Part shown: in pieces, positions 2,564-6,802 of the stretch
Position numbering within the stretch: the stretch's first letter is position 1
Layout of the letters: every line of letters starts with the position of its first letter
From: Bacteroidia bacterium
GTDB taxonomy: Bacteria; Bacteroidota; Bacteroidia; UKL13-3
DNA length: 64,000 nucleotides
Assembly (NCBI GenBank): GCA_020049855.1
Contig: JAGVLJ010000017.1
Coordinates: forward strand, 1,239 to 65,238
Reading direction: 5' to 3'
The notes under the pieces: generated by a model
The model's database searches: none
Told to the model about the DNA's origin: nothing
The model's input: only the letters and a program-made list of their open reading frames with translations
Translations under genes and position numbers: made by a program

Positions 2564-5500
2564 ATGGAGAGTGTAGAAAAATATATTCCGAAGAACAAAA
2601 TCAGGGTAGTAACGGCTGCCAGTCTGTTTGATGGCCACGATGCTGCCATAAATATTATGCGCAGAATCATTCAAGCCAGTGGGGCCGAAGTGATTCACCT
2701 GGGCCACGACCGCAGTGCAGAAGAGGTAGTTAACTGTGCCATTCAGGAAGATGCCAATGCTATTGCCATGACCAGTTATCAGGGTGGACACGTGGAGTAT
2801 TTTAAATTTATGTACGACCTGCTGCAGCAGAAGGGCTGCGGCCATATTAAAATTTTTGGAGGGGGTGGTGGAACCATTCTGCCCGAAGAGATTGACGAGT
2901 TGCAGACTTACGGCATCACTCGAATTTACCATCCGGATGACGGCCGAGCCATGGGCTTGCAGGGAATGATTAACGACATGTTGCAAAAATGTGATTTTAA
3001 AACAGGGGAAAACCTGAACGGGGAAGCCAAACACCTCAAAGAAAAAGACTGGAAATCCATTGCCCGGTTAATCTCGGCAGCAGAAAATGACCCCAAAGGA
3101 TTTCAACCATTCTTAGATGCCATAAAAAAAGATGTGAAACCGGTACCAGTATTGGGAATAACCGGAACCGGTGGTGCAGGAAAATCATCGCTGGTTGATG
3201 AACTGGTGCGCAGGTTTTTGCTCGACTTCAAAACTAAAAGCATCGCCATCATTTCGGTCGATCCGAGTAAACGCAAAACAGGTGGTGCTTTGTTAGGAGA
3301 CCGTATCCGCATGAATGCGATTAAAAATCCACGGGTGTATATGCGTTCACTGGCAACACGACAAAGTAATCTGGCATTATCTAAACATGTGCAGGAAGCT
3401 ATTGATATTGTAAAAGCCGCGGCTTTTGATTTAATTATTCTCGAAACATCAGGTATCGGGCAAAGTGATACTGAAATTATGGATCACAGTGATGTGGCTT
3501 TGTATGTGATGACACCCGAATACGGAGCAGCTACTCAACTGGAAAAAATTGACATGCTTGATTTTGCCGACATCATTGCCATCAACAAATTTGATAAGAA
3601 GGGGGCGCAAGATGCCCTGCGTGACGTGAAAAAACAATATCAGCGCAATCACCAGCAGTTTGATAAATCGCCCGACAGCATGCCCGTGTACGGCACCATT
3701 GCCTCCCAGTTTAACGACCCCGGCATGAACCGCCTGTACAAAGCGGTTATGGATAAAGTGGTGGAGAAAACCAAGGCGGATCTCAAATCTACCTACGAGA
3801 TTACCGATGAGATGAGCGAAAAAATTTACATTATTCCTCCCTCACGCACCCGCTACCTTTCCGAAATTTCGGAGAATAACCGCAACTACGATAAATGGGT
3901 AAAAAAGCAATCTGAAATTGCGGATAAGCTTTACGGATTGAAATCATCCATCGATACATTGAAATCGTCAGCCATTGATGACAAAGAACGGTTGATAAAA
4001 GCATTAGATGAAACATACCATCAGGTTGCACTTGATTTGGATCCCCGCAACCGGAATATTCTGGAGACATGGGAACAGAAAAAAGATTTGTACCGAAATG
4101 AGTACTATGTGTTCAAAGTGCGCGATAAGGAAATCAAAATTAAAACACATACCGAATCTCTTTCGCATACGCAGGTTCCCAAGGTAGCGGTTCCAAAATT
4201 CAAAAGCTGGGGCGATATTTTACAATGGGCTTTGCAGGAAAATTTCCCCGGTGACTTTCCATACACAGCAGGTATCTATCCGTTTAAACGCGAAGGAGAA
4301 GACCCTACCCGTATGTTTGCCGGAGAAGGCGGACCGGAGCGCACTAATAAACGTTTTCACTACGTATCGAAGGGTATGCCTGCCAAACGCCTCAGCACGG
4401 CTTTTGATTCGGTAACACTCTATGGAAACGACCCGGATCATCGCCCCGATATTTACGGAAAGATTGGTAATTCGGGTGTGAGTGTATGGAGCTTAGAAGC
4501 TGCGAAAAAATTGTATTCCGGTTTTAACCTCGCTGATCCAAAAACTTCCGTCTCCATGACCATCAATGGGCCGGCTGCCATTATCTGTGCCTTCTTTATG
4601 AATGCCGCTATTGATCAGCAATGTGAATTATATATTAAAGAGCATGGCCTCGTGGATGAGGTGAATGCGAAGATTGATACACTATTTAAAAAGCGGGGCA
4701 CCACACGCCCAACCTACAATGAAACACTTCCTGAAACCAATGACGGATTAGGCCTGATGTTGCTGGGTGTAACCGGTGACATGGTATTGCCGGCAGACGT
4801 GTACAACAAAATAAAAGTGGAGACTTTAAAAAACGTACGTGGTACCGTGCAGGCGGATATATTAAAAGAAGACCAGGCCCAGAACACCTGTATCTTCTCT
4901 ACTGAGTTTTCATTACGCGTAATGGGTGATGTGCAGCAATATTTTATTGATAATGCCGTGCGTAATTTTTATTCCGTATCCATCAGCGGTTACCATATTG
5001 CCGAGGCAGGTGCCAACCCGATTACGCAATTGGCCTTAACGCTTTCCAACGGGTTCACCTTTGTTGAATACTATTTGAGCCGCGGAATGAACATTGATGA
5101 TTTTGCACCCAACCTGTCTTTCTTCTTCAGCAATGGCATTGACCCGGAATATTCGGTAATAGGCCGTGTATCGAGACGCATATGGGCCAAGGCGATGAAA
5201 CTCAAATACGGGGCCAACGTACGCTCACAAATGCTCAAATACCATATTCAAACTTCCGGTCGCTCGCTGCACGCACAGGAAATTGATTTCAACGATATAC
5301 GCACCACGCTGCAGGCCTTGTATGCCATTTACGATAATTGCAATTCACTTCACACCAATGCCTATGATGAGGCCATTACCACACCTACTGAAGAAAGTGT
5401 GCGCAGGGCCATGGCCATTCAGTTAATCATTAACCGCGAGTTGGGATTAGCCAAAAATGAAAATCCGTTACAGGGTTCTTTCATCATTGAAGAATTAACG

Positions 5501-5938
5501 GATTTGGTGGAAGAAGCCGTCCTGAGCGAGTTTGATAAAATCACTGAGCGGGGAGGAGTGCTGGGCGCCATGGAAACCATGTACCAGCGCAACAAGATAC
5601 AGGAAGAAAGTATGTACTACGAAATGCAGAAACATACTGGAGAATTCCCGATTATTGGGGTAAACACTTTCTTAAGCAGCAAAGGCTCGCCTACGGTATT
5701 GCCTAAGGAAGTTATCCGCTCCACCACCGAAGAAAAGGAATACCAGATTACCATGCTGAATGAATTGAAAAAAGGCAATGAGGCAAAAGGCAAAGAAATG
5801 TTGCTACGTTTACAAAAAGCCGCCATACACAACGAAAACCTTTTTGCCGAGCTGATGGAAACCGTAAAGTATTGCTCTCTGGGGCAAATTACACATGCCC
5901 TGTTTGAAGTGGGCGGGCAGTATAGGAGGAATATGTAG
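2564..5938 (+). CDS. icmF: Fused isobutyryl-CoA mutase (B12-binding domain, MeaB-like GTPase and methylmalonyl-CoA-mutase-type catalytic domain)
   Basis: 1124 aa. N-terminal B12-binding DxHxxG signature (DGHDAAIN), P-loop [12 protein letters not shown] of the MeaB/ArgK G-protein, and a long C-terminal acyl-CoA mutase domain. Confidence 0.8.
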
Positions 5939-6094
5939 CTCTATGGTTATTAAAGGTCGGCCTCAAATTCAACTGGAGCGTACATATTGCGCGTTATCAT
6001 TTGTTTCATAAAAGTATTAGCGTGCTGCCACTTGCTACAACTGACGATATATTTCCAGTTTGGCGGCTAAGTATATTTTGAAATCTGCATTCAC

Positions 6095-6256
6095 ATCCCC
6101 CTACCCCGTTAGCTTCGCTGAACCCTTCGGGTTTTGCTTTCCCGCCACCAGCCGCACAAGGGGGACAGATCCATTTCAAAAAGATTTTCGGTAAAGTGAG
6201 GTTCCAGTCCCCCTTGCAGCGAGGGCCTGAAGCGTGAGGGAAGGGGGTAGGGGGAT
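6095..6256. other. GC-rich nested inverted-repeat element (candidate structured RNA or palindromic repeat unit)
   Basis: Perfect 13-bp inverted repeat ATCCCCCTACCCC (6095-6107) / GGGGTAGGGGGAT (6244-6256). It encloses a perfect 10-bp inverted repeat CAAGGGGGAC (6157-6166) / GTCCCCCTTG (6207-6216) and a small hairpin AACCC-ttcg-GGGTT (6121-6133). Confidence 0.5.
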
Positions 6257-6355
6257 GAACTACGGATACCTGTGGCTTCATTGTACTTTATCTTTCACTA
6301 ATTAGGAAATGCGGCCGGATTTACCTAACCTTTGCATAATTAAAATAATAATCTT

Positions 6356-6802
6356 ATGATGTACATATCTATTTGCGTTACGCTGCTCACCATGATTGCA
6401 GCCATGCACCTGTTAGCAAAAACCAATAAAGAAGCCCTGGGCTCCCTTTTTAAGTGGGTTTCTTATGCAGTACTTATTGTGGCTTCGCTGTTGTTGCTTT
6501 GTCAGGTAACACGCGGGATTGCCAAAATGTGCTGCCATAAGGAATGCAAGGAAAAAAGTCATTGTGAAATGGGGAAAATGGGTGGACACAGGGGAATGAT
6601 GATGATGGAAAAAGAATGTCGCATGCACGGAGAAGAAGGATGCTGTGAAATGGAAAAGATGCACAAAAAAATGGGCAAAGGAGATTGCAGTTACATGAAG
6701 TGTGAAGAGGAAACAGAAAAATGCGGAGGCAAAATGAAATCGGGGATGGATCATCGGGAGATGAAACCCGATAGTGCCGCTGGCCACCATATGGGCAAAT
6801 AA
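6356..6802 (+). CDS. Small membrane-anchored Cys/Met/His-rich protein (putative metal-binding)
   Basis: 148 aa with two N-terminal hydrophobic helices followed by CCHKEC, M-rich (GMMMMEKEC), CC, CxxxC-like and HH motifs. The opposite-strand ORFs look like antisense artefacts of purine-rich codons. Confidence 0.55.
   Translation: MMYISICVTLLTMIAAMHLLAKTNKEALGSLFKWVSYAVLIVASLLLLCQVTRGIAKMCCHKECKEKSHCEMGKMGGHRGMMMMEKECRMHGEEGCCEMEKMHKKMGKGDCSYMKCEEETEKCGGKMKSGMDHREMKPDSAAGHHMGK

Follow-up and report, generated by a model that had tools for sequence, protein, structure and literature searches.

The element and its locus

This study concerns a GC-rich palindromic element at positions 6094-6258 of a 64-kb stretch of DNA (the window) from an uncultured Bacteroidia bacterium (39% GC), the sequence of which is identical in three public assemblies. 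The element lies in the spacer between two genes that an earlier interpretation, made without database searches (the sequence-only reading), had described correctly: an icmF-type fused mutase gene that ends at 5938 (2564-5938, with B12-binding, MeaB and MM_CoA_mutase domains) and an open reading frame (ORF) of 148 amino acids (aa), rich in Cys, Met and His, that starts at 6356 (6356-6802). It sits 156 nt past the icmF stop codon, on the same strand, and 99 nt before the 148-aa ORF. We show that it is one copy of a dispersed repeat family, and that this family is present in multiple copies at unrelated intergenic sites. Taken as a whole, the element is probably a solo, partly degenerate copy of such a repeat, being neither a gene nor a regulator of its neighbour, and nucleases of the DUF559 family are probably cognate to the repeats. 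Its parts and immediate surroundings, in window positions, are the following.

6094-6258, no strand assigned: the whole element, in which a left unit, a central loop and a right unit make up a solo inverted doublet, matched by the family hidden Markov model (HMM) and aligned with copies from other genomes
6094-6110, no strand assigned: left terminal block, CATCCCCCTACCCCGTT, which is the outer arm and holds the mirror block C5-TA-C4; family consensus TCATCCCCCTACCCCCTTC
6108-6134, no strand assigned: module of a second unit type, GTTAGCTTCGCTGAACCCTTCGGGTTT, with a mini-hairpin at 6120-6134
6155-6166, no strand assigned: inner-left conserved block, CACAAGGGGGAC, the G-stem of the left unit, invariant in the nine-copy alignment
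6167-6206, no strand assigned: central AT-rich loop between the units
6207-6216, no strand assigned: inner-right conserved block, GTCCCCCTTG, the C-stem of the right unit
6217-6239, no strand assigned: variable spacer (loop 1) of the right unit, about 23-25 nt
6240-6258, no strand assigned: right terminal block, GAAGGGGGTAGGGGGATGA, in which TA separates G-stem 1 from G-stem 2, giving a mirror repeat AGGGGG-TA-GGGGGA
6006-6281, minus strand: a 91-aa ORF over the element, an artefact of the repeat, in which HPPTPF is the translated terminal block
6320-6339, plus strand: promoter-like block of the 148-aa gene, outside the element and kept in homologous loci that lack the element

Two inverted repeats form the palindrome: an outer one of 17 nt, in which one pair is mismatched (6094-6110 / 6241-6257), and an inner one of 10 nt that is perfect (CAAGGGGGAC / GTCCCCCTTG, 6157-6166 / 6207-6216). 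The outer repeat includes the perfect 13-nt repeat that the sequence-only reading had placed at 6095-6107 / 6244-6256, and the inner one was likewise located correctly. A small hairpin that it had seen at 6121-6133 is also there, with a loop of 3 nt (AACCC-TTC-GGGTT) and not, as proposed, of 4 nt. GC content inside the element is 0.52-0.55 versus 0.35-0.41 in the flanks, as expected from the earlier description of a GC-rich element in an AT-rich spacer. The element folds at -80.7 kcal/mol on the plus strand and -79.6 kcal/mol on the minus strand, compared with about -58 and -60 for shuffled sequences (z of -5.1 and -4.7, respectively), and none of 200 shuffles folded as well. The suggestion that its G-tracts could form G-quadruplexes proved weak: the window has no canonical four-run G3+ motif, on which ground a canonical quadruplex was rejected, and there is a single two-tetrad candidate (6238-6254).

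A dispersed repeat family

Inside the window the element stands alone. The 13-mer of its terminal repeat does not occur again (0.46 near matches are expected by chance), the remainder of the 64 kb holds no unit of this repeat type, and the family HMM (nhmmer) matches at 6094-6258 and nowhere else (97 bits on the plus strand, 62 bits on the minus strand). Relatives were sought with an outer-arm pattern, CCCCCTACCCC N121-151 GGGGTAGGGGG, in 185,579 species genomes, where at least 119 stretches matched. Most of these belong to other families of G/C runs (e.g. AACCCCCCCTACCCCCCCTTGTCAGGGGGG, in unclassified metagenome-assembled genomes (MAGs)); they share the core architecture, differ in internal sequence and were excluded as homologues.

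Among the matches listed, six share all four blocks, namely TCATCCCCCTACCCCCTTC, CACAAGGGGGAC, GTCCCCCTTG and GAAGGGGGTAGGGGGATGA. Four of the six lie on one 2.7-Mb Sphingobacteriales MAG contig (CAWJNV010000001.1, at 0.27, 0.95, 1.10 and 2.44 Mb), where they are diverged and occupy intergenic spacers beside unrelated genes. A pattern for the right half recovered eight further metagenome contigs, and there is another copy in locus L068. Copies of the family sit 4-130 nt from gene ends, and the sequence between their blocks differs from copy to copy yet is largely self-complementary. The family pattern was unmatched in viral contigs, and plasmids gave no DNA match to the element. The four diverged copies on a single contig, together with those in other genomes, bear out what the sequence-only reading had offered as its alternative, a copy of a dispersed repeat resembling repetitive extragenic palindromes (REP) or miniature inverted-repeat transposable elements (MITEs). 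In addition, a doublet in an Anaerolineae MAG of the Chloroflexota (L086:1429-1580) carries the terminal block of the Bacteroidota family (TCATCCCCCTACCCCCTTC ... GGGGGGTAGGGGGATGG), an identity that suggests horizontal transfer or a strongly constrained recognition sequence.

At the icmF locus itself the element is variably present. One relative, L149 (IcmF 95% identical), has a copy here with 82% identity and with about 20 nt of left flank in common, and two others, L148 (IcmF 95%) and L150 (IcmF 92%), have no element at this locus. Conservation of the element at the icmF locus across orders was considered and rejected, as the 1132-aa gene beside copy L107 is icmF-like in length and unrelated.

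These loci bear on the idea that the element is a 3' hairpin of the icmF transcript which halts exonucleases or transcription, in the manner of REP or enterobacterial repetitive intergenic consensus (ERIC) sequences. Such a role would be an exaptation, compatible with a repeat origin, and it would suit a very stable hairpin lying 156 nt past the icmF stop on the same strand, as well as the placement of family copies 4-130 nt from gene ends. Yet no T-run follows either arm of the element and the terminator scan makes no call there, so the GC-rich hairpin lacks the U-tract of an intrinsic terminator, and relatives whose IcmF is 92-95% identical manage without the element. We regard this role as quite unlikely.

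Regulatory RNA and coding potential

The sequence-only reading had also proposed a structured RNA, perhaps a metal-responsive cis-regulator of the 148-aa gene. The strong fold and the position 99 nt upstream of a probable metal-binding gene speak for a riboswitch-like or metal-responsive leader of this kind, and the remaining evidence turns against it. A cmscan-type search, which had been recommended as a check, found no family for the element in Rfam 15: nothing reached the gathering threshold (the whole window yields two tRNAs elsewhere), and the locus gave noise only at E<=10. In every family copy both strands fold equally well, with similar numbers of G.U pairs, a symmetry that a palindrome in DNA should show and an RNA made from one strand should not. 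Since a comparison of G.U counts and energies across strands found no strand-specific bias in any copy, a strand-specific RNA was rejected. In the nine-copy alignment the conserved stems are invariant, and two-sided changes are confined to 5 middle pairs.

The position of a promoter-like block is a further point. A block (TTTACCTAACCTTTGCATAA, 6320-6339) that recurs as TTTACCTAA(C/A)CTTTGCATAA in homologous loci just before the start codon of the 148-aa gene looks like its promoter. The element is upstream of this block, and the transcript of that gene therefore probably does not include the element. The homologous loci of the gene (L132/L133 and L135) have no such element, and the same element adjoins unrelated genes elsewhere. 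A leader RNA for the 148-aa gene is, in our judgement, scarcely credible.

The 91-aa minus-strand ORF fares no better as a coding sequence and is the artefact that the sequence-only reading had suspected: no frame stays open through the family copies and the corresponding frame has two stops in the closest copy, for which reasons a coding role was rejected. A related annotation problem was seen in DUF559 proteins, of which annotated examples (P0052, P0040, P0057) often end in HPPTPF or HPPAPP, the translation of a repeat unit. These tails reflect DUF559 gene ends that have been over-extended into the repeat, and HPPTPF recurs in the 91-aa ORF of the window.

Units, doublets and mosaics

The basic unit of the family is C5-TT-loop-AA-G5-(T/C)A-G5-ATGA, or its complement, in which the loop measures 3-6 nt in short units and 22-50 nt in long units; the loop-1 position spans just 3-6 nt in the short units that adjoin DUF559 genes. 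Units are found alone, in tandem, as inverted doublets (the form in the window) and as doublets with a central cargo (L127). Tandem arrangements are seen in L124, which has three repeats of 71 nt and four of 91 nt, and in L140-L147, where a 33-nt repeat is present 2 to at least 8 times, according to the sample. The central loop of doublets is 40-93 nt long across copies, and that of L127 holds a cargo of 1.1 kb. This cargo (L127:395-1496) includes a 120-aa ORF without a Pfam match, and the dinB-like / dnaE2-like locus of L127 recurs in L123, where half-units alone are present.

In the alignment of nine copies, the terminal block is invariant save for its central dinucleotide, which varies (TA, CA, TT or GA) between G5/C5 runs that are nearly invariant (e.g. 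window 6248-6249, L149:7428, L126:430 and L200). At the centre of the unit, Bacteroidota have GTAGG, and Proteobacteria and Cyanobacteria have (C/T)TAGG; it is at that centre base that one half of a doublet often has C and the other T (L149, L126/L128, Sinorhizobium and Photobacterium). A single G-run can pair with either C-run, and local hairpins and the long palindrome are alternative folds. The module of the second type (the AACCC/GGGTT hairpin) is missing in the closest copy, L149, yet recurs in L127, L129 and L209, and the window element is for this reason a mosaic. The window doublet is two inverted units, REPIN-like in form, with a unit of the second type spliced into the left arm.

Doublets of this kind call to mind REP sequences, their doublets (REPINs) and the REP-associated tyrosine transposase RAYT (TnpA-REP), a system reportedly treated by Nunvar in 2010, by Bertels and Rainey in 2011 and by Ton-Hoang in 2012, and covered also in PMC5581495 and PMC8266576. 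As in that system, the unit is a short imperfect palindrome, inverted doublets are the common dispersed form, clusters and mosaics occur, and one small gene, usually at one fixed locus, is flanked by inverted repeats; likewise, the repeat sequence is lineage-specific and a matching copy lies beside the gene. The family is dispersed as such palindromes are, with four doublets on one contig and single or tandem units elsewhere. It differs in that the flanked gene encodes a Vsr-like PD-(D/E)XK nuclease (DUF559) instead of an HUH Y1 transposase, that the units have a second G (or C) run past the hairpin, and that the terminal block is conserved across phyla. No RAYT was present among the genes called at the examined loci, no systematic search for one having been made.

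Relation to intrastrand triplex motifs

The three-block design has been described as the 'intrastrand triplex motif' (Holder et al. 2015, NAR 43:10126, PMC4666352), and the repeats were the subject of an earlier account by Hoyne et al. (2000), cited there. The E. coli family, TMECO, also described as BoxC, has the form CCCTCNCCC N3-6 GGGNGAGGG N3 GGGNGAGGG; E. coli K-12 holds 23 copies, and 262 proteobacterial genomes hold 3,610 between them (PMC4666352). TMECO copies are always intergenic, sometimes arranged in inverted pairs, and tied to strain-to-strain rearrangement; no mobile-element link was found and no function assigned, and their origin and spread were left open (PMC4666352). In E. 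coli doublets, one unit is always of the TTA type and the other of the CCG type (Holder et al., PMC4666352).

The window family shares with these repeats the order of a C-rich stem, a loop, a G-rich stem, a loop of 2-3 nt and another G-rich stem in mirror symmetry, as well as an intergenic, multi-copy distribution as singles or inverted doublets at strain-variable loci and the lack of a known transposase. The right unit has the three blocks as CCCCCTT (6209-6215), AAGGGGG (6241-6247) and, after TA, GGGGGAT (6250-6256), and the left unit is its complement with C4 in place of C5. The two sets differ in sequence, the window family having C5/G5 runs and a TA centre where TMECO has CCCTCNCCC / GGGNGAGGG with TTA or CCG, and accordingly the window does not match the TMECO consensus, which is matched beside the E. 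coli gene ycjD. They also differ in host, the published TMECO set being proteobacterial and the window family belonging to the Bacteroidota, and in the first loop, which is 25-50 nt in the window versus 3-6 nt. Loops of 1-6 nt are what the published search rule admits; in the window copy the second loop (TA, 2 nt) qualifies, whereas the first, with 25 nt in the right unit and some 50 nt in the left, is too long, and the copy falls outside the rule. Short-loop relatives do fall within it (TTTGA in L136, T in L137 and CATTG in L140). By its sequence the window element belongs to the triplex-motif architecture and is a putative triplex former.

DUF559 nuclease genes beside the repeats

Three independent loci (L124, L126/L128 and L129, where L126 and L128 are the same locus in related strains) have a gene of about 120 aa directly between units, and in each it encodes a DUF559 protein (PF04480, E 1e-29 to 3e-30). 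A tblastn search placed DUF559 genes in nine loci of the outer-arm scan (from Nitrospinota, Cloacimonadota, Alphaproteobacteria and Cytophagales). At seven of these nine the gene follows a G-run motif after 25-90 bp and is itself followed by a C-run motif after 15-70 bp, and in the other two (L078 and L091) the gene lies 0.2-3 kb from the motif. The type of the right terminal block is found elsewhere 7-50 nt upstream of DUF559 start codons.

A search that started from the protein was made to remove the bias of starting from the motif. All four Bacteroidota DUF559 homologues picked from that search carry a unit 7-80 nt from the gene, and eight out of eight homologues on plasmids or chromids, spread over five phyla (Azospirillum, Sphingomonas, Sinorhizobium, Photobacterium, Neisseria, Pseudanabaena, Picosynechococcus and Deinococcus), are flanked by lineage-specific three-block units. 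Counts of units adjacent to the gene and elsewhere in 40 kb were 4 and 0 in Sinorhizobium, 2 and 0 in Deinococcus, 3 and 2 in Pseudanabaena, and 2 and 7 in Picosynechococcus. Viral contigs served as a negative control: the motif is missing from 44 distant Vsr-like relatives there, and the sole close full-length viral relative, L151, is preceded by three units in tandem, 30 nt ahead of its start codon. Altogether, small stand-alone DUF559 genes of the YcjD type with units directly at their flanks occur in Bacteroidota, Alpha-, Beta- and Gammaproteobacteria, Cyanobacteria, Deinococcota, Nitrospinota and Cloacimonadota.

Gene and repeats also move together. The DUF559 gene of L209 is 96% identical to that of L128 and lies, together with its doublets, in a different neighbourhood. 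On a plasmid of Deinococcus psychrotolerans (L208:19886-20406), a unit-gene-unit array forms an insert of about 520 bp between paaD and paaZ of the paa (phenylacetate) operon. These data show that the family and its analogues adjoin DUF559 genes far above chance and that a module of gene plus repeat changes place.

Some loci deserve mention on their own account. The unit core of L208 is missing from the other 39 kb, and the array looks like a discrete insertion. On a Cloacimonadales chromosome (OY759316.1, L022:4968-7531 and L033:2348-4093), at least 7 tandem DUF559 genes alternate with doublets at a period of about 590-770 bp. Eight metagenome samples of what is the same organism (31% GC) have, at about 1700-1990 of L140-L147 (alaS / DUF559 / ABC-F), 2 to at least 8 copies of a 33-nt unit, GTCCCCCTTCATTGAAGGGGGTAGATTTTTTTT, upstream of the DUF559 gene, which makes this array a natural variable-number tandem repeat.

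The protein itself is probably an active nuclease, given that D56, D69, G70, H73 and D82 (alignment numbering) are invariant across five phyla in an E-x-D-G-x-x-H...D pattern. By sequence, the DUF559 proteins have their nearest relatives in PDB 3HRL and a homing endonuclease, I-Bth0305I (3R3P). Searched as a defence system, they gave weak PADLOC matches only (to a methyl-directed restriction enzyme and a homing endonuclease). A type III toxin-antitoxin system is a poor description of the window copy, a solo inverted doublet with no nuclease gene within 64 kb; tandem units do lie upstream of some DUF559 genes (L140-L147, L151 and L124), but downstream, inverted and dispersed units are found as well.

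The same loci speak to a further interpretation, in which the element is a classical MITE, that is, a deletion derivative of an insertion sequence (IS) moved by the transposase of that IS. Like MITEs and other palindromes such as Correia (Neisseria) and ERIC (enterobacteria), which are 100-170 bp long, intergenic, variably present between strains and able to form long hairpins, the element has terminal inverted repeats (17-19 nt), measures about 165 bp and is intergenic and multi-copy. The window family differs from them in its separable units, found alone or in tandem, in its association with DUF559 and in the lack of a target-site duplication, of which no direct form was seen at six copies. 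No parent IS with the same ends and a transposase gene was found in about 200 loci; where a gene is present, it encodes DUF559 and is placed not within a doublet but between two of them, whose ATGA/TCAT ends point towards it, an arrangement opposite to that of a deletion derivative. Single units and half-units in tandem are found too, and we consider a MITE origin very improbable.

The repeats and ycjD in E. coli

The DUF559 gene of E. coli is ycjD, and an exact TMECO copy (NC_000913.3 1351205-1351239; L204:5206-5240) lies 167 nt 3' of it, adjoining ycjD as the Bacteroidota units adjoin their DUF559 genes. The copy is TMECO no. 9, which Supplementary Table S2 of PMC4666352 puts 167 nt from ycjD; the paper has no mention of DUF559 or of an associated gene. 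With 23 copies in 4.64 Mb, the chance of such proximity to ycjD is about 0.002. The stretch from TMECO to ycjD is present in 3,377 of 5,426 complete E. coli genomes, and ycjD, which occupies one fixed locus, is missing from about 38% of them, Nissle 1917 included. Across 40 evenly spaced genomes, TMECO-like megablast matches number 4.1 where ycjD is present versus 1.9 where it is absent (p=5e-6, phylogeny ignored).

Neighbouring genes and the spacer after icmF

The genes beside the window copy have features of their own. The 148-aa protein has just two homologues in 5.8 billion proteins. It combines an N-terminal membrane segment with a Cys/Met/His-rich tail, and its homologue in L132 lies near genes for MbnP and CCP_MauG (MbnH-like), a context that points to copper handling. 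The spacer after icmF (5939-6093 in the window) is a variable hot spot in relatives: in L132 (3149-5000) it holds an AbiLi/AbiLii defence pair (PADLOC E 2e-47 and 2e-12), in L149 (6376-7416) a 295-aa ORF, and in L148 (6376-7400) and L150 (6385-6550) other ORFs. A non-coding block of about 100 nt (window 5965-6060; TCAACTGGAGCGTACATATTGCGCGTTATCATTTGTTT ... GTGCTGCC..TGCTACAACTGACGATATA) is kept at L148:7270-7380, where 0.9 kb of other DNA parts it from icmF.

A possible repeat-nuclease partnership

Given their adjacency, we infer that DUF559 proteins are the cognate enzymes of these repeats, as RAYT is for REP and REPIN. The target of Vsr is CT(A/T)GG, which the unit centre (C/T)TAGG resembles. 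The DUF559 proteins share fold family and active-site motif with Vsr and with VsrA, a Caulobacter DUF559 protein (PMC12907096). Neither Vsr nor VsrA has been reported as linked to repeats. In vivo, VsrA damages DNA if methylation is missing from the motif presumed to be its target (PMC12907096), and activity of the DUF559 family on chromosomal DNA is therefore plausible.

In the mechanism that we propose, a DUF559 nuclease would recognise the (C/T)TAGG-like centre of a unit and nick the DNA at that point; what it sees there might be a T:G mismatch or an extruded hairpin. A folded doublet whose halves differ by C/T would present just such a T:G mismatch to a Vsr-like enzyme. Units would be copied, homogenised, expanded or deleted when the break is repaired. 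The copy in the window would have arisen passively in this way, through a nuclease encoded outside the 64 kb; in place, it would amount to a hairpin in the icmF 3' region that marks a rearrangement-prone spot.

The broader form of this proposal is that YcjD-type DUF559 proteins are the missing cognate enzymes of BoxC/TMECO-type repeats and make up a second, independently evolved repeat-nuclease partnership beside REP/RAYT, in which Vsr-like recognition of (C/T)TAGG drives copying, homogenisation and instability and elements like that of the window are non-autonomous products. We offer it tentatively, at somewhat less than an even chance.

An enzyme-free account would have the repeats spread by slippage, template switching or recombination at non-B DNA, with DUF559 as a selfish homing nuclease that settles at repeats, or with the units as its operator or terminator. 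In its favour, E. coli strains show more rearrangement at triplex-motif loci (PMC4666352), one DUF559 gene has 2 to at least 8 of the 33-nt units upstream of it, depending on the sample, the closest solved relatives of the protein include a homing endonuclease, and the Deinococcus gene sits inside a doublet within an operon. However, such an account leaves unexplained why a 19-nt terminal block is kept across phyla in solo copies far from DUF559 (L086, Chloroflexota) and why the repeat adjacent to the gene is that genome's own repeat family, and ycjD keeps to one fixed locus in E. coli. We hold this account to be unlikely, though a rival to be taken seriously.

Several observations weigh against the reading of the window element as a dispersed-repeat copy with DUF559 as the cognate nuclease. 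No DUF559 gene lies within the 64 kb of the window. No direct target-site duplication flanks the six aligned copies, so that strict transposition is not demonstrated, and a clean empty site could not be reconstructed, since L148 shares the block at window 5965-6060 and diverges before the insertion point. The position and orientation of units around the gene vary, with units on both sides, on one side or, in E. coli, 167 nt off. Some ycjD-negative O157 strains still have 3 TMECO-like matches. That lineages have the 'same architecture' was judged by reading sequences and with simple patterns, no formal model being used, and the link between DUF559 and the repeats is known as adjacency and co-occurrence only. 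Finally, we found no published link of DUF559 or ycjD to such repeats in a literature search that left most subscription journals uncovered; the consistent partnership of the two appears to be new.

Implications

For the window, the result is deflationary: the element is repeat DNA rather than a riboswitch, and annotations should leave out the ORF that spans it. The same repeats account for many spurious 'HPPTPF...' ORFs and for C-terminal extensions of DUF559 proteins, and they flag intergenic sites that are prone to rearrangement. G/C-rich repeats of the triplex-motif/BoxC type are abundant in hundreds of genomes and linked to genome instability, and their origin, spread and function are open (PMC4666352), while DUF559/YcjD is a very widespread protein family without an assigned role. 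The repeat in the window belongs to this known but unexplained class, and its partnership with DUF559 is directly testable, as the link between repeat and gene across at least 8 phyla or classes makes both questions testable in E. coli.

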